Shown: positions 4,404-22,025 of the stretch, in pieces
How positions within the stretch are numbered: the stretch's first letter is position 1
How the letters are laid out: each line of letters begins with the position of its first letter
Source: a virus
Reading direction: 5' to 3' (one strand)
Length of the DNA: 64,000 bases
IMG/VR virus record: IMGVR_UViG_3300009506_000015
Location: 11,429 to 75,428 of that record
Made by a program: the position numbers and the translations under genes
Notes under the pieces: generated by a model
Databases searched by the model: none
The model's input: only the letters and a program-made list of their open reading frames with translations
Told to the model about the DNA's origin: nothing

Positions 4404-5075
4404 TTACCCCCAGACAAACCACCGGGTAACGATGGGTGGTTCTTGCGGTTCGGCGCAACCGATAGCCGCCAGGACGTAGAACTTTTTGTCATCAGTGCGG
4501 GCGAGCCGCTGCGCCTCGCGCATTGCTGCGCCTGCGCTATCATGCCTGACAGTGGACGCCAGCGTCCTTTGGTCACTGGATACCACGTAGAACTCCGGCT
4601 TGCCTATTTGGCCTATTTGGTCGGCCAGATATCGCACTATCTTGTCGTCCAGGCGGTCGTATGCAGGTGGCGGCGGTACAACCTCTGCCCAGTCATAGTT
4701 GTTGACCATTTCCGACCGGGAAATGGTCGTCCCGGTCACGGTATCGACAAGCCCGCTGACCGAGTTGTAGTATACCAGCGTGGCTTTCCTGTGGTCGCCA
4801 GTGTTCTTGGCGATCCAGTAGTATTCGCCCATCACAGGCGGGTGGCCGCTGTGCCACCCGTAGTTGTGCCGATACTTGAACTTCGGTTCGTCCATGTCTG
4901 GCGTGAGCGGACCCTTGTGCATCATGTCGGGGACCAGCTCGGGTGCTAGCCGCGCACCCGATGGGCCGCGCAGCATATGGTCGTCGTTGGTGTACCAATA
5001 CACGGCGTCTTCCGTGCCTGGACGCCGTATCCAGTAGAACCCGCTCTCCACGGGTTCGCCTCTAATCCATTCCAT
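4404..5075 (-). CDS. hypothetical protein with two W..G.P...G.YW repeats
   Basis: WIRGEPVESGFYWIR and WHSGHPPVMGEYYWIA; SD GGAGG. Confidence 0.75.
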   Translation of the reverse strand: MEWIRGEPVESGFYWIRRPGTEDAVYWYTNDDHMLRGPSGARLAPELVPDMMHKGPLTPDMDEPKFKYRHNYGWHSGHPPVMGEYYWIAKNTGDHRKATLVYYNSVSGLVDTVTGTTISRSEMVNNYDWAEVVPPPPAYDRLDDKIVRYLADQIGQIGKPEFYVVSSDQRTLASTVRHDSAGAAMREAQRLARTDDKKFYVLAAIGCAEPQEPPIVTRWFVWG

Positions 5076-5077
5076 GT

Positions 5078-5356
5078 TTATCCTCCGTTTTCGTAGATAT
5101 CCAGCACCGAATATTCCTTGCGCACTGGTTCTGTATCAGCCAGCGTCCTATCCGGTTCTGGGATTGGCCCCATCCACTCGAAGTGCTCGGAGCCTAGGAA
5201 GTCAACAACGCCATCGTAAGAACGGTCATCGCCATGTATCCAGATATTCCCCTGAGACAGCAGGACAAGCTCCCGCATGTCCAGATGGTTCCCATACCGT
5301 ATCCAGTAGTAGCCTTCCTGGTCGATTGATACTAGCTTCCCGTCATTCCAGACCAT
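5078..5356 (-). CDS. hypothetical protein, same repeat family
   Basis: MVWNDGKLVSIDQEGYYWIR...MGPIPEP. Confidence 0.65.
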   Translation of the reverse strand: MVWNDGKLVSIDQEGYYWIRYGNHLDMRELVLLSQGNIWIHGDDRSYDGVVDFLGSEHFEWMGPIPEPDRTLADTEPVRKEYSVLDIYENGG

Positions 5357-6056: not shown

Positions 6057-6664
6057 GTTTCCTCCTCTCTCGCGGAGTCTATTGCACTCCGCGCTTTTTC
6101 CCTAACCGACTTGATTATCCTGCTGGCGTACAGGGTATTGGTAGACAGAATCGGGGCGAGTTTCCTACTGGAAACGGCCCCGTCCAGTGCTACCATGAAT
6201 TTCAGACATGTGCGTTCGCGTTCGTCAAGGTTGCCCCACAGGTCGTTGAGCCACTGTGGCGTCTCATCGTCCAGGTGGTACTCGTCCGTGACCGCGTTGC
6301 GTTCCTCCATGTCCGATATCACCCCGTTGTCATCTCTGGGCATCTCCAGTTCGTGGTACAGGTGGCGGTTCTGTCTGTGTACGGCGTGCTTGGTACTGTC
6401 CTTGCCAGCTTCGTCCGCCATGGACAGTATGATGCCCTTGCCAATACCTATAACCCATGTCGGGAACGCCGACAATCGTGGGTTATAGTCTTCCTTGCGT
6501 AGCATGGCTGTTTCCCAGGCGGCCTGTACAACGTCGTCTGAAGCCCAGCCCATGCCGCGTATGTACGCATACTTGCGGATAGATTGTTCGATATCTGCGC
6601 CAAATACACGTACATATTCTGCGAACCAGTCAATCTCAATCCGTTGCTTCCTTGCTCTCGTCAT
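6053..6664 (-). CDS. RNA polymerase sigma-70 family (ECF-like) factor
   Basis: Region 2-like DDVVQAAWETAMLRKEDYNPRLSAFPTWVIGI; region 4-like LDERERTCL...SSRKLAPILS..YASRIIKSVREK. Confidence 0.8.
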   Translation of the reverse strand: MTRARKQRIEIDWFAEYVRVFGADIEQSIRKYAYIRGMGWASDDVVQAAWETAMLRKEDYNPRLSAFPTWVIGIGKGIILSMADEAGKDSTKHAVHRQNRHLYHELEMPRDDNGVISDMEERNAVTDEYHLDDETPQWLNDLWGNLDERERTCLKFMVALDGAVSSRKLAPILSTNTLYASRIIKSVREKARSAIDSAREEET

Positions 6665-10617: not shown

Positions 10618-11433
10618 TCACAACGTGCGCAATGACACGTCTATGTCCGGCTGCCCATCGTGGCGGCGCGTTATGTCGATCCTGGCGTATCCCGCGACTG
10701 GCGTCGTACCGCCCCTGTTTTCCAGGTACGTATGTTTCCCGGTGATAGGCATGGATATCACGCCCCACCGCATCTGCGGTTCTTCGTAGCCAGCGCGGTT
10801 CAGGACATCCACACTTTCAGGGAATATCATGCCCCTGTGTGTGTGGGCGACAAGCACCACATCTGCGTTCTTCTTCCAGGTAAGCCGTTGCAGTTTCAAC
10901 GCATCCCCGCCTCTAAGTTCACCTCCGCCCCACCCATGCGTCACGTAGATATCTACGGCATACCTGTATTTCCCGTTTTTATTCCTCAGCCGTACTTTAA
11001 GCCAGCCGGATTGCAGGGTAGAACCAGTATACGGAGCGGACATTCGCTCCGCAATCACCGCCGCGGCGTCGATGTGATACATCTTTGCGGCTTTAGACTC
11101 GTGGTTTCCAGTAACCATCATGGCCCATTTACCTGCCGTCGGTGCCCATATCTTGCAGAATCTAAGGGCCTGTATGTAGAATATGTTATGTATCAGTTCG
11201 GGGACTATGGGGGTTGACAGTTCGTGAGGGTCGAACCTTCTGTCACTTGGGGCTATCGCTTCTATATAGTCACCTGCACCGATGATCATGCCGTATTCGT
11301 CCTCTGCCACTATCTTCGCGAGTCTTCCTTGCTTGTCTTCGCACGATGCCACAGAACCCACGTGCGTGTCGTTTACAGCGTAAAGTCGCAGGACTGGCTT
11401 GTCCCAGTCTATGATGACGGCTTTCCTCTTCAA
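10618..11433 (-). CDS. calcineurin-like metallophosphoesterase
   Basis: DTHVG, GDYIE, GNHE, THG and AHTH motifs in order. Confidence 0.9.
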   Translation of the reverse strand: MKRKAVIIDWDKPVLRLYAVNDTHVGSVASCEDKQGRLAKIVAEDEYGMIIGAGDYIEAIAPSDRRFDPHELSTPIVPELIHNIFYIQALRFCKIWAPTAGKWAMMVTGNHESKAAKMYHIDAAAVIAERMSAPYTGSTLQSGWLKVRLRNKNGKYRYAVDIYVTHGWGGGELRGGDALKLQRLTWKKNADVVLVAHTHRGMIFPESVDVLNRAGYEEPQMRWGVISMPITGKHTYLENRGGTTPVAGYARIDITRRHDGQPDIDVSLRTL

Positions 11434-17952: not shown

Positions 17953-18135
17953 CTAAAGCTCGTCCAGTATACGGATAAGGTACGCCTTATCATCGTCCGT
18001 GAACCACGCCGGTAGCTCGTCTGCGAACTCGGTACAGTAGTACGCTACTCGCTCGCTAGCCGGGATAGATGGATCGTCGGAGCCTGAGTCTATCAGGATT
18101 GCCAGCTCCGTAAGCACAGCGCCCTTCTCGTCCAT
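17953..18135 (-). CDS. small acidic hypothetical protein
   Basis: SD GGGAGGTG before MDEKGAV. Confidence 0.65.
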   Translation of the reverse strand: MDEKGAVLTELAILIDSGSDDPSIPASERVAYYCTEFADELPAWFTDDDKAYLIRILDEL

Positions 18136-18255
18136 AGCGGGTACACCTCCCTTCTGTTGGATAATGGACAAGTGACGTGGTAGGAGATTCCTACCACGAT
18201 GAACCTGGCCACTATCGGGTACCGTAGTGGGATGCGGGATACACCTGGCGGGCAC

Positions 18256-18459
18256 TCACCAGCGGGACAGGATACCTGGTCGTCCGATGGGATCTCTGCT
18301 CCGATACACGGCGCAGCTACCCCTCAGCGGGCAGACCTGGCACTTCTGACCTGGTCGTGTGCAGCCCCCGGCAGTCCTGACCAGGACGGGCGAGAGCTTG
18401 CCTTGAACCCTGCTAGCTGTGGGCATCGCTGGGCGATACCGACGTTTTGTCTTACTCAT
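18256..18459 (-). CDS. small protein with Cx6Cx2Cx5C motif
   Basis: SD GGGAGGTGATC; CTRPGQKCQVCPLRGSC. Confidence 0.6.
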   Translation of the reverse strand: MSKTKRRYRPAMPTASRVQGKLSPVLVRTAGGCTRPGQKCQVCPLRGSCAVYRSRDPIGRPGILSRW

Positions 18460-18688
18460 CTAGGATCACCTCCCCTCAAGGTTAGTCAATACGGCACGGC
18501 AGGGTAGAACGATTGTTCTACCCTAGCGTGCCGGGTTGACCAGACCCGGCTATTCAATTCGGCAGCGTTTGTTTAGCGGGGGCTGCCGCTCCCGCAACTA
18601 TGACATTCTATTTTCGATCAAATGTTCTACCTCCAGTAGAATTGGGTGAGGGGTGAGACATCATTGTCTCACCCCTCGCGTCCGACCT

Positions 18689-19543
18689 TTAGGATTGGGG
18701 CCACCAATCCTTCCGGTGCCAGAACGAGCCGTAGTAGGTGCCCTCGTTCTTAGCGAAGAAGTCTTTGAGCGCTGCCTCGAGCATCTCTGCCGTTTTGCCC
18801 TCAGCGATTGTCCCGATGTCCTGCCCGTTCCTAGTAGCAGTCACTTTGTGGGTGCCGTTTTCCAGTGTATGGGTGTAACCATACTTTGAACCGCCCCCAC
18901 CGCTACCGCTGTTGCGCGGTTTGCGGCTGCCACCGCCTGTCGTGAGGGTGATCTTCCCATCATCGGATATCTTGCATCCGACCTTGAGAATCTTGCGATC
19001 AACTCCCTCGTTTTTGGCCACGCCGTCCACGATGCTAAAGATATGGGCTTCCGCCAATCTCAGCATATCGGGTACTTTCGCTGCCGCCTTCGCGAGGTCA
19101 CTGTCGATCTTGATCTTGTACTCAGCGCCCAGGATGTCCTCGTTCTCGACATCGGTGCCGATCTTGACCCAGCTTTTGGCCGCCCCGGAATATTCACAGG
19201 ACGTCGGCAGTCCGGCTTCTTCGAGCAACTGGCGGAAGTAGGAGAGCGCGCCTGTATAGTCTGCAATCGACTTTTTCAGGCTCCTATTGCTCTTGAGTGC
19301 CTTGGCGATCACTGGGGCCGCGAGTTCCTGGAGGTCGGGCACGACCTCTTCAGGCTTTGCAGCCTTTTTGAACACACTGGACATCGCCTGCACAGCCGTC
19401 CATGCATTGTCCCGTGCTGCGGACTCGGGCATCTTGAGGTCTGTGAATCTCTTCACGAGGTCTTCAAACGCCGTGAAGACCTCACCAGGTACCTCAAAAC
19501 GTCCTGCGCTCACTTCTACCACATGCTTCTCATTCTCTGCCAT
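18689..19543 (-). CDS. hypothetical protein
   Basis: 284 aa, SD GGGAGGTG; followed by hairpin 18648-18677. Confidence 0.8.
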   Translation of the reverse strand: MAENEKHVVEVSAGRFEVPGEVFTAFEDLVKRFTDLKMPESAARDNAWTAVQAMSSVFKKAAKPEEVVPDLQELAAPVIAKALKSNRSLKKSIADYTGALSYFRQLLEEAGLPTSCEYSGAAKSWVKIGTDVENEDILGAEYKIKIDSDLAKAAAKVPDMLRLAEAHIFSIVDGVAKNEGVDRKILKVGCKISDDGKITLTTGGGSRKPRNSGSGGGGSKYGYTHTLENGTHKVTATRNGQDIGTIAEGKTAEMLEAALKDFFAKNEGTYYGSFWHRKDWWPQS

Positions 19544-19582
19544 TGTAGTACACCTCCCTGAAGTTTGTAATATCACCTGGCA

Positions 19583-19903
19583 TAGTGACATCTGCTAAAG
19601 CATAAGGCCCATTGTATCACCTCACGCCGGATGCTTGCAGACTACAATCTCGTGTCCCATTACCGGATCGAGACTGTCAGTCATCCTATGATGCTTCGTG
19701 AAGAATTTAGGCGGAGCATCATACATGGTAGCATAGATGGGAAAACCGCACAGCGGGCAATAGATATACATCCCGCATAGCTGTAGACTGACATCCACTC
19801 GATTATATGTCATCTTATAGGTCACTGTGAATTTTATCCTAGGCTCAGCCATAATCACCCTCCCTCACATGGTAGTGACCTTATGCCCTAGCAGATGTCA
19901 CTA
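19583..19903. repeat. 25-bp inverted repeat enclosing ORF 19622-19852
   Basis: 19583-19607 TAGTGACATCTGCTAAAGCATAAGG versus 19879-19903 CCTTATGCCCTAGCAGATGTCACTA; two differences. Confidence 0.9.
19622..19852 (-). CDS. small zinc-ribbon hypothetical protein
   Basis: SD GGGAGGGTG; CPLC. Confidence 0.65.
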   Translation of the reverse strand: MAEPRIKFTVTYKMTYNRVDVSLQLCGMYIYCPLCGFPIYATMYDAPPKFFTKHHRMTDSLDPVMGHEIVVCKHPA

Positions 19904-20255
19904 ACTAACTAACTGTATATCACTGCCACCTGGTCACTATATACAAGCGTTCCTATAATCAGTTTAACGTGATGTCAGGCCAGATGGCCGCATCTAGTTT
20001 AATCTTCACTACCATACTGGACTCAAAGGCAATGTAGCCTTGTAGCATGGTAGCACCATATACCATATACTTGCCACTGGCGGATAACCTCAGCTTCCCT
20101 GTCATGCTAAAGCAGATGTCCCCAAACCTCTGAACCGTTACTGTCTTGCCCAGTAGATTGTTTAACTCCTCAGACATTGTACCCTCCTATGGTATGATAC
20201 GCTTGTATACAGTGACCAGGCGCCAGTGACTACCCTACATTCAGTAGTTAGTGAC
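19897..20255. repeat. ~55-bp imperfect inverted repeat enclosing ORF 19959-20177
   Basis: Core 19920-19950 versus 20199-20229 (31 bp, three differences) plus distal GTCACTAACTA/TAGTTAGTGAC. Confidence 0.9.
19959..20177 (-). CDS. small hypothetical protein
   Basis: 72 aa, SD AGGAGGG. Confidence 0.7.
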   Translation of the reverse strand: MSEELNNLLGKTVTVQRFGDICFSMTGKLRLSASGKYMVYGATMLQGYIAFESSMVVKIKLDAAIWPDITLN

Positions 20256-20730
20256 GCCTTGTTTCCTTTTTCACAATCTCCGGTCGGTTCCGGTCACGCG
20301 CCCAGCCGGAGGTGTGGCGTGGCGCGCTTGCTCCCGTGTCTTCTCATTCTATGATGCCAGTGACGCTCAGATGCTATACGTACACACGGTCACTACTCGC
20401 AGCACAGCTTAGGATGCTATCGGGAGACTGCTATGTCAGGCTGACAAGGTAGAGCGAAAGTATCACGCGCCGCATCTAGTCTAGCAGACAAACCGCCCTG
20501 CCTACAGAGGTTCGCCCTCCACCGCGCTAATTCATGGGAGTTGTCTTTCACCGTGAGGTCAGGTCTAGGTAAGGCGTTACACCGTAGCGTTCCAGTGATA
20601 CACTAGACGCGTCCGGCTGCCCGCACTCGAGTCGAAGCACATTCACGCGGCAGCGATTGCCTGTTGTCCGTTCCAGATGACTAACTTGCGTTTTCGCGTT
20701 CCCTATGCTGTTGTTAACGTTCCTTACTAT
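20256..20730 (-). ncRNA. candidate long structured leader or ncRNA
   Basis: ~470 nt without an ORF, several complementary segments, downstream of TTTACC..TATACT. Confidence 0.45.
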
Positions 20731-20874
20731 CTATAGTATACCCCATTTTTCGGAGCGTAGGTAAACCTGTTTTCGACCACGCGGGCGGGGGTAGACCCTC
20801 ACGTAAAAATTAGGGTAGTCAGGACTTTGATTGAGGTTAGTGGGGGGAGATTGTTAGGTCTCCCCCCGATGGGA

Positions 20875-21300
20875 TTACAAGAGGAATGGGAATCCGGGGG
20901 CACCTGTTCTATCGGTCAGGTGTTTCATGATTTGGGACATGAGTCGTTCTGGTGTATCTTCTTTATGGCGGAGGACCACGGGTTCTTGCCATATCCAGGC
21001 ACCGTAGTTTGTTTTGCGTTTAGTTTGTTGTTCTATGGCGGCGTATTCTGTTTTGCTGATATCGTGGAACAGGTGTTTATAGGAATGTACCTGTCCTATA
21101 TAGTAGGTTTCCACTGATTTCCAGCCATGGAAGCCGCCTCTGGCTACGGCCCAATGGGTATCGGGTTCGTAGTAGATGATAAATTCGGCATCGTTGCCAT
21201 AAGAGTACCGCCAGAACTTTGGGTAAGGCGGGTCGAAGAAGGCGGTATTGAACTTGACGCCTTGTGCGCGTATGATAGTTCCGACTTCCTGGGCGTTCAT
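20875..21300 (-). CDS. hypothetical protein
   Basis: 141 aa, followed by hairpin 20842-20867. Confidence 0.65.
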   Translation of the reverse strand: MNAQEVGTIIRAQGVKFNTAFFDPPYPKFWRYSYGNDAEFIIYYEPDTHWAVARGGFHGWKSVETYYIGQVHSYKHLFHDISKTEYAAIEQQTKRKTNYGAWIWQEPVVLRHKEDTPERLMSQIMKHLTDRTGAPGFPFLL

Positions 21301-21333
21301 GGTTGTTCTTCGATGTATTCTACCATAAGGTAT

Positions 21334-21585
21334 TTAATCGCTTTCATCATCCATATTCCCTTCGAGAATCATTTGGGCGATAACGCGTTTTACGCCTTTA
21401 TCGGCTATGTCGTTGGCTATGGTGGCGAGGACCGTGAGTTGGTCGATGTACCACTGTTGGTCGCCGTCATCCGTTTCAGCCGCGACGACGAGTCCCACCA
21501 TACAGGACAGGATGCATTGTACGTCGTCGCGGCCAAACGTAGTAGCCAGGTATTTTAGCATGGTTAGCTTATCTTCGCTGGTCAC
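21334..21585 (-). CDS. hypothetical protein
   Basis: GTG start MTSEDKL after AGGGGG. Confidence 0.6.
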   Translation of the reverse strand: MTSEDKLTMLKYLATTFGRDDVQCILSCMVGLVVAAETDDGDQQWYIDQLTVLATIANDIADKGVKRVIAQMILEGNMDDESD

Positions 21586-21593
21586 TATACCCC

Positions 21594-22025
21594 CTATGCG
21601 TAGTAGGCGATTATGCCGAACTTGATTTCCACGTGTTTGGCGGCTTCGCCAATGGTGGCGATCTGTTGGGCATAGTTCCGCTTGAAGTTCTGTACGGTGA
21701 TGTCGCGTGTTTCTGCCGATATCGGGTAGTCGTCCCCGAAATTGACATGTACGCCACACGGGCTGTGGTTTCCGACGATAACCCAGTAGTCGGAATCGAC
21801 GTTTTCGATCTGTGACAGAGATTCGTCGTCGCCCAGGACGTCGTACAGGGTAGCAGTACGTTCGCGTACTACGGGTACGAGTTCCTTGCCGCACAGCGGA
21901 CAGAACTTGTAGTTACTGTGGGTTGATCTCCCGCAGCCAGGGCACATATGTCCTGATTCATATTCGATTTTTGGCGGCGTTGCCGTGAGATAGGCTCCTA
22001 CGAACACGTTTGCGTCTACACTCAT
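21594..22025 (-). CDS. zinc-ribbon protein
   Basis: CPGCG...FCPLCG. Confidence 0.7.
   Translation of the reverse strand: MSVDANVFVGAYLTATPPKIEYESGHMCPGCGRSTHSNYKFCPLCGKELVPVVRERTATLYDVLGDDESLSQIENVDSDYWVIVGNHSPCGVHVNFGDDYPISAETRDITVQNFKRNYAQQIATIGEAAKHVEIKFGIIAYYA

Follow-up and report, generated by a model that had tools for sequence, protein, structure and literature searches.

In ribosomal RNA (rRNA) operons, the sequences flanking 16S and 23S rRNA pair with each other into the processing stalks of RNase III, and the RNase III signals of bacteriophage T7 are local intergenic hairpins. The ideal substrate of Escherichia coli RNase III is 22 bp, and five processing signals are found in the early precursor of T7 (PMC3867540). 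In the hbs mRNA of Bacillus subtilis, a 14-bp pairing between the 5′- and 3′-untranslated regions (UTR) controls RNase access, the protected position being a site for RNase Y (Braun, Durand and Condon 2017, PMC5737220). The locus described here lies in a 64,000-nt stretch of viral DNA (positions 11,429 to 75,428 of IMG/VR record IMGVR_UViG_3300009506_000015; referred to as the window) and contains two consecutive small open reading frames (ORF1 and ORF2), each of which is enclosed, together with its Shine-Dalgarno (SD) sequence, by a long inverted repeat (referred to as stem 1 and stem 2, respectively). This arrangement was confirmed, is not explained by chance, and is unusual. It most likely represents two long-range mRNA helices, interlocked with each other and each closing around one cistron; that the repeats act as RNA, in the form of long-range closing helices in early mRNA, is our preferred and still tentative reading.

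Similar to the rRNA stalks, the two flanks of each unit are predicted to pair across hundreds of nucleotides, the unit is enclosed by the resulting helix (20 bp or more), and consecutive units are enclosed separately in one transcript. On the other hand, what would be enclosed in each case is a small protein-coding cistron together with its ribosome-binding site rather than an rRNA, and, in contrast to rRNA operons, no boxA or antitermination context was verifiable at the locus. As in T7 early mRNA, a polycistronic phage transcript would be split into single-gene messages by intergenic double-stranded elements, whereas each helix in the present case is made by the two flanks of one gene, and the ends of the message would stay paired. 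The 5′- and 3′-UTR are predicted to pair within one cistron, across the coding sequence, for each of the two ORFs, which is the layout of hbs, but the predicted pairing is 25-42 bp (14 bp in hbs) and concerns two tandem phage cistrons instead of a host gene. No paper describing private long-range helices around phage protein-coding genes was found in the literature, in agreement with the original prediction, which knew of no named system with this layout for protein-coding genes.

The positions first given for both ORFs and for the segment common to the two stems, and the lengths given for the arms and for an additional 11-nt complementary pair (the outer helix), were all correct when re-checked (Table 1). 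The two cassettes have the same geometry (arm, SD, ORF, arm), in which the arms are just outside the SD sequence and the stop codon, at distances of 21-26 nt on the start-codon side and 8-14 nt on the stop-codon side. The arms are inverted rather than direct and are not self-complementary, and neither arm pair is related to the other. The arms of stem 1 and stem 2 are complementary at 23 of 25 and 28 of 31 positions, respectively, and no inverted repeat within 2 kb anywhere in the window ranked above these two. The real repeats, which are adjacent, scored 38.2 and 34.2 bits; among 40 Markov-shuffled genomes, the best repeat averaged 27.7 bits (maximum of 36.2) and the second best did not exceed 28.2, and no shuffled genome yielded two repeats of such strength. 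When approximately 106 heuristically called genes were ranked by the energy of the duplex between their upstream and downstream flanks, ORF2 and ORF1 were first and third, and no others had a long continuous helix. As a rough base rate, approximately 580 kb of unrelated viral loci (those fetched by chance matches to the arms) contained no true gene-bracketing repeat of comparable strength; two strong repeats among them, an iteron array and a family of repeated palindromic hairpins, did not bracket genes.

The differences between the arms were strand-dependent. The core arms differ at five positions (two in stem 1 and three in stem 2), namely, four transitions and one transversion. All four transitions give G-U pairs on the minus (coding) strand and A-C mismatches on the plus strand, while the transversion is a mismatch on both, which confirmed the earlier count of four of the five differences as G-U on the coding strand. 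On the minus strand, stem 1 consists of 25 uninterrupted pairs (including two G-U) and stem 2 of 24 and 6 pairs around one mismatch. The duplex energies were -41.7 (minus) and -36.7 (plus) kcal/mol for stem 1, and -55.2 and -44.6 kcal/mol for stem 2. A 721-nt fold had a z-score of -9.0 on the minus strand versus -6.6 on the plus strand, and both stems appeared in the minimum free energy (MFE) and centroid structures. Since the loops folded alone were no better than shuffled sequences (z = +0.28 and -0.81), the excess structure lies wholly in the arms.

The two stems are not independent. Positions 19897-19903 (UAGUGAC on the mRNA) can pair either as part of the 5′ arm in stem 1 or as part of the outer helix in stem 2, so that these pairings compete; the competition initially proposed is real, and the model resolves it toward the outer helix. 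In the ensemble of a 1.4-kb minus-strand segment, the pair probability was approximately 1.0 for stem 2. The outer helix formed with a probability of approximately 0.9, compared with 0.05 on the plus strand. In stem 1, the inner 16 pairs had probabilities of at least 0.97, while the outer seven were displaced, leaving approximately 17-18 bp. Both helices (25 bp; 31 and 11 bp) reach the length of RNase III stalks (at least approximately 20-22 bp), although stem 1 is only approximately 17-18 bp in this ensemble. In addition to its two arms, the stem 1 sequence has a partial copy inside ORF2, at 20104-20125 (17 of 22 positions identical to 19883-19904 in direct orientation, and 15 of 17 complementary to 19587-19603), and this segment could be an alternative pairing partner for the 3′ arm of stem 1.

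Table 1. Features of the two enclosed cistrons and their surroundings (positions in the window; mRNA order where a strand is given).
Feature	Position	Strand	Remarks
Outer helix, 5′ strand	20245..20255	-	GUCACUAACUA on mRNA; perfect 11-nt inverted repeat with 19897-19907
Outer helix (both strands)			lengthens stem 2 across a 15 × 12 nt internal loop
Stem 2, 5′ arm (31 nt)	20199..20229	-	pairs with 19920-19950; one G-G mismatch
Spacer in loop (21 nt)	20178..20198	-	SD of ORF2, AGGAGGG, at 20182-20188
ORF2 (72 aa)	19959..20177	-	inside the loop of stem 2
Stem 2, 3′ arm	19920..19950	-	begins 8 nt past the stop codon of ORF2
Outer helix, 3′ strand	19897..19907	-	within the run TTAGTTAGTTAG, stop codons in all three frames
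Stem 1, 5′ arm (25 nt)	19879..19903	-	pairs with 19583-19607
Spacer in loop (26 nt)	19853..19878	-	SD of ORF1, GAGGGAGGG, at 19858-19866
ORF1 (76 aa)	19622..19852	-	inside the loop of stem 1
Stem 1, 3′ arm	19583..19607	-	begins 14 nt past the stop of ORF1; ends 36 nt ahead of the start of the next gene
Next gene (285 aa)	18689-19546	-	downstream of stem 1
Contig break	19581..19588		8-nt overlap CATAGTGA; outer edge of the stem 1 arm

In a minus-strand early transcript, each small cistron and its SD would be closed into a loop of approximately 250-270 nt, by a stem of 25 bp in the case of ORF1 and by one of 31 bp, lengthened by the 11-bp outer helix, in the case of ORF2. Since the bases of the helices keep a distance of 21-26 nt from the start codon and 8-14 nt from the stop codon, ribosomes could translate the loop without melting the stem. 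The helices would partition the polycistronic RNA as possible substrates of host RNase III (both reach the approximately 22 bp of the ideal substrate), and cutting would produce single-gene messages whose 5′ and 3′ ends are still paired; alternatively, they may be clamps that shield the ends from exonucleases and 5′-end-dependent RNases. The common UAGUGAC would make the helices interdependent: with the outer helix formed, stem 1 would be approximately 17-18 bp, and when stem 2 is cut or melted, stem 1 would be restored to 25 bp.

A similar layout was found in bacteriophage T5 (AY543070), which was compared with ten relatives (77-95% identical over the query region). In this phage, an inverted repeat (4683-4707 and 4951-4975) surrounds the pre-early gene T5.008 (4715-4918, minus strand). 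Its arms leave 32 nt ahead of the start codon and 7 nt past the stop codon, a geometry resembling that of the ORF1/ORF2 locus. When the 11 T5-like phages were analyzed with RNAalifold, a 24-bp long-range helix was obtained, in which none of the 264 cells was broken. Two pairs carried double changes (AU/UA at a ratio of 6:5, and CG to UA via a UG intermediate), and six columns carried one-sided changes, all of which are G-U on the coding strand. The coding-strand duplex was 4-9 kcal/mol more stable than that of the other strand in every phage. In phage Seafire, the loop contains two ORFs and the stem is retained. The T5 stretch corresponds to "Repeat Region 1", conserved inverted repeats of the first-step-transfer DNA, which have been discussed only as DNA (Davison, bioRxiv 10.1101/866236). 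The two systems share a small early gene enclosed with its SD in an inverted repeat of 24-38 nt, G-U pairs on the coding strand only, and the position of the arms (approximately 30 nt before the start and approximately 7 nt after the stop in T5). On the other hand, there is no sequence similarity between them, the T5 arms, as read from the alignment, coincide with promoter cores while no such coincidence was seen here, and comparative support was obtained only for T5. Another long inverted repeat of T5 (37 nt, 5275-5311 and 6260-6296), whose arms are 86% complementary, surrounds hegG, an HNH endonuclease gene, and its promoter.

These results favor the RNA reading because of the coding-strand G-U pattern, the geometry shared by the two cassettes, the lack of a repeat-family, duplication, or recombinase signature (see below), and the T5 analogue. 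The long RNA stems of the original prediction are in line with the stronger stems on the coding strand, their presence in the MFE and centroid structures, the unstructured loops, the geometry of both cassettes, and the analogous helix that co-varies in T5-like phages; processing by RNase III, nuclease resistance, and circularization of the messages would be possible consequences.

Several points weigh against this reading. The locus by itself adds little proof: ORF1, ORF2, and the 285-aa gene are singletons, no homologous locus was found in any collection searched, and the informative sites number only four. The G-U count alone is weak evidence (four of four transitions, p = 1/16) and could be inflated by a C-to-T bias of the non-template strand. 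Since only 2 of the approximately 106 genes carry enclosing stems, these are not a genome-wide expression strategy. Neither RNase III nor RNA ligase was found by Pfam among 61 scanned proteins of the minus-strand early block. In T5, an alignment reading placed the arms on promoter cores (the 3′ arm coincides with the spacer and -10 of the next promoter), so that a DNA-level role is possible there, and concerted evolution of promoter copies could contribute to the pattern. Two further points concern the DNA of the locus itself. The cassettes are more AT-rich than their neighbors, as was noticed at first sight (GC of 0.43-0.49 over 19500-20300 versus 0.55-0.58 in the flanks), and a contig break coincides with the outer edge of the stem 1 arm (Table 1); both hint at a DNA-level history.

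The break was seen in the Logan contigs of one run (X1), possibly the source sample of the record: one contig of 15,038 nt (depth of 11.1) stops at 19588, and another of 30,204 nt (depth of 17.1) starts at 19581. Since two dead ends overlap by less than k-1, several origins were considered. The reads may truly start and stop at a physical end whose 5′ overhang was filled in, alternative junctions that have the 8-mer in common may occur in the population, or coverage may have failed by chance at this modest depth. The remaining two ends of these contigs fall within ordinary genes, so that accidents do occur in this assembly, and the break is a weak hint of a DNA-level discontinuity. Mapping of reads for inversion or excision had been proposed as a check; at the level of contigs, which drop rare variants, neither an inversion nor a joint was found over the region. 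Only short pieces less than 90% alike, taken as unrelated, were found in runs X2 and X3, and no RNA run was listed as containing the sequence. An attP site at the 8-nt overlap was rejected as unlikely because no match to integrase or resolvase (PF00589 and PF00239) was found in the whole genome, and an intragenomic rearrangement was rejected because CATAGTGA, as read from the motif contexts, occurs only once in the genome.

An alternative, which the composition and the break would fit, is that the arms are DNA-level cassette boundaries, the arm-ORF-arm units (321 and 310 bp) having been acquired horizontally with RNA pairing as a by-product. The terminal inverted repeats would then delimit a very small, non-autonomous mobile element or mark sites at which recombination is favored. 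The units are foreign in composition, tandem, and of the size of miniature inverted-repeat transposable elements (MITE), the ORFs have no homologs, and the GTCACT/AGTGAC motif is common to the ends. The Rad52-type annealing protein and Mre11-like nuclease of the phage could recombine short homologies, and the break, which coincides with the outer limit of the left arm and shows an 8-nt overlap and a depth step from 11.1 to 17.1, is the signature expected for a variable junction. On the other hand, a random coverage gap may account for contig evidence that comes from one run whose other contig ends are within ordinary genes, the two arm pairs are mutually unrelated, and each of the four transitions leaves a G-U pair in the coding-strand duplex.

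The searches for further copies also bear on this alternative. The arms had no copy elsewhere in the genome. In scans with exact patterns, which diverged copies could escape, arm 2 had no match in IMG/VR, and 32 million genome contigs contained neither arm. For arm 1, a degenerate 17-mer had 63 matches in IMG/VR, which is about the chance expectation, and a 21-mer had one match in 241 million metagenome contigs, which was judged as chance (nothing was shared beyond the 21 nt, and there was no partner arm). Related loci were not found in IMG/VR via the 285-aa neighbor, the AAA ATPase, or the large terminase, megablast against INPHARED gave no match, and tblastn with the terminase gave only 21-29% identity. 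No direct repeat suggestive of a target-site duplication was found beside either unit ("TA" at the ORF1 unit is indistinguishable from a 2-nt extension of the inverted repeat). Pfam revealed no transposase or other recombinase family among the 61 early-block proteins scanned; these tests covered phage proteins, and a host recombinase could still act.

Known mobile or exchangeable elements of phages were compared with the locus on the same basis. Mycobacteriophage ultra-small elements (MPME) have repeats of approximately 11 bp and one small ORF of approximately 123 amino acids. They are bounded by inverted repeats (IR-L) and near-identical in several phages, and their insertion adds 6 bp (PMC3029335), which provides a precedent for ultra-small, inverted-repeat-bounded ORF elements. 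The present units are likewise phage units of a few hundred bp with one small ORF between inverted repeats; however, the arms are 25-31 bp, the ORFs encode 72-76 amino acids, and no second copy was found anywhere searched. Among the hallmarks of MITE and MPME, terminal inverted repeats (25 and 31 nt) are present, while multiple copies and a target-site duplication were not found. The T4-type PeSL cassettes consist of a promoter and a local terminator hairpin, as direct repeats in many copies (PMC2839356). There, too, small genes without homologs are flanked by short non-coding elements, which are conserved and located in variable parts of the phage genome, and a role at the RNA level is combined with that of a recombination joint, whereas the present arms are inverted, unique to each gene, and have no local hairpin. 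Membership in the PeSL class was rejected since the arms are inverted, not self-complementary, and without a good sense promoter (only poor ones were found within the arms). An integron gene cassette was rejected because there is no tyrosine recombinase and the repeats are on both sides of each ORF rather than a single 3′ attC, and no gene for the invertase or recombinase of an inverton was found among the phage proteins scanned. Of the earlier suggestion that the arms mark exchangeable cassettes, the foreign composition and the X1 break are consistent with the idea, while the uniqueness of the arms and the lack of a target-site duplication and of a recombinase argue against it. Overall, we consider horizontally acquired cassettes unlikely as the main explanation. 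The readings are not exclusive: by analogy with PeSL, an RNA element may double as a recombination joint.

The short motif at the arm ends gave rise to a different DNA-level reading. GTCACT/AGTGAC occurs 40 times genome-wide, as expected by chance, yet 9 of the 13 intergenic copies are within 19584-20389, at or near the arm ends, in both orientations and in the form NGTCACTR. This cluster may be a protein-binding site, and the locus would then be a binding array for the control of packaging, replication, or injection, with the long repeats as extended paired sites. Such an array may adjoin a physical genome end at 19581-19588, comparable to the repeat-rich T5 DNA that is injected first: an 8-nt contig overlap fits filled-in 5′ cohesive ends, as does the depth step, an ORF-free stretch of approximately 600 nt adjoins the locus, and the inverted repeats of the T5 first-step-transfer DNA have been interpreted at the DNA level (bioRxiv 10.1101/866236). 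However, complementarity over 25-31 nt far exceeds a motif of 7-8 nt, and the arms precisely bracket translation units. Furthermore, no dyad symmetry was seen by inspection around 19581-19588, the terminase genes are 10 kb away, and the assembly closes circularly across this position. A DnaA-box replication origin was rejected because no box was found near the locus. We regard the binding array as distinctly improbable.

The least probable of the readings considered is that the repeats are functionless young relics of inverted duplications or template switches, which arose with the insertion of the two genes. Their confinement to two adjacent genes of a singleton phage would fit this origin, but two independent and unrelated arm pairs have the same geometry relative to the SD and stop, all differences but one preserve pairing on the coding strand, and T5-like phages were found to conserve this layout.

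With regard to the enclosed genes, ORF1 and ORF2 each have a strong, well-spaced SD sequence. When a codon log-odds score was trained on 22 long genes of this phage, ORF2 scored 0.19, within the coding range and the best of the six frames. The score of ORF1 (0.04) was also the best of six frames and higher than 95% of off-frame chunks, yet below the 5th percentile of true coding chunks, and its translation is plausible but less certain than that of ORF2, with atypical codon usage. Only itself was found for ORF2 among 5.8 billion proteins, and a full HMMER search of 1.84 billion representatives with ORF1 gave itself and one repeat peptide, judged as spurious; protein searches with the 285-aa neighbor gave only a singleton. 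No match was obtained in Pfam or PHROGs for ORF1, ORF2, or their neighbors. The single-sequence AlphaFold2 (AF2) model of ORF2 (predicted local distance difference test (pLDDT) of 73) consists of an N-terminal helix followed by four to five strands, and both Foldseek and VIA ranked Sm/LSm proteins first, albeit weakly (E of 0.08-0.3 and Z of 5.0-5.4, respectively). A structure search of the ESM Atlas returned the same small-barrel class. The model suggests, as a lead and not a finding, that ORF2 is an Sm-like small β-barrel, and it may be a small RNA-binding protein. By eye, its N-terminal half (LLGKTVTV...G...TGKL) resembles the Sm1 motif. The AF2 model of ORF1 (pLDDT of 51) was not usable. 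No hydrophobic, membrane-like stretch was seen in either product, and a hok-type type I toxin with a fold-back mRNA was rejected: no hydrophobic toxin was seen, and the antisense promoter-like site is a consensus match only. This site (19931-19959, plus strand) is a near-consensus σ70-like TGGTCA-17-TATAAT, whose -35 element is inside the stem 2 arm and which is directed antisense through ORF2.

If the helices act as RNA, the principle of rRNA maturation and of hbs, in which a long-range helix processes or protects a unit, would be extended to phage protein-coding genes. This would explain the stability and output of individual early genes within one transcript, and would provide a compact, portable expression "socket". 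A far more general proposal is an architecture of phage mRNA in which early genes are closed by private helices and excised as end-paired (pseudo-circular, possibly ligatable), exonuclease-resistant messages, with the stop near the ribosome-binding site for re-initiation, the helices serving as joints for gene swaps, and the present locus being a case of two interlocked helices processed in sequence; we consider this quite unlikely. What is particular to this locus is that its two helices would interlock and that one arm edge may be connected with a discontinuity of the DNA, and this is by itself no proof. In contrast to the sediment phage, T5-like phages are culturable, and mutant hosts (rnc) exist, so that the layout is testable in a model system.

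The record derives from a marine sediment metagenome and is classed in the database as a complete virus. The genome is a circular assembly of approximately 75.3 kb (the contig has 75,428 bases, of which the first and last 144 are identical) of a tailed phage without close relatives, and encodes a large terminase, SNF2 helicase, AAA ATPase, SSB, Rad52-type annealing protein, Mre11-like nuclease, a sigma-factor domain, and three tRNAs. The region of ORF1 and ORF2 is located in a long minus-strand gene block (early or middle). In the order of this strand, an ORF-poor stretch is followed by the outer helix, the 5′ arm of stem 2, ORF2, the 3′ arm of stem 2, the 5′ arm of stem 1, ORF1, the 3′ arm of stem 1, and the 285-aa gene; 12 nt separate the 3′ arm of stem 2 from the second strand of the outer helix (19907-19897). 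Between the cassettes, positions 19900-19911 (CTAACTAACTAA) contain stop codons in all three frames on both strands.

Upstream of the cassettes, approximately 600 nt (20256-20870) are without convincing ORFs and hold a weak promoter-like site, TTTACC-19-TATACT at approximately 20735-20766, whose spacer is too long. A "structured leader" at 20256-20830 was unsupported by energy, since 20230-20800 of the minus strand folds like shuffled sequences (z = +0.84). A search of 18000-22000 against Rfam gave nothing relevant, including no group I intron and no large noncoding RNA. No convincing terminator was found between the arms, and the sole nearby minus-strand candidate is a weak 5-bp stem in the upstream leader (20509-20496). 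Past the 285-aa gene, several strong local hairpins are present in intergenic positions (18485-18540 and 18650-18675), one of which has 26-nt arms and a 4-nt loop, and these are probably terminators or processing sites that end the transcription unit.

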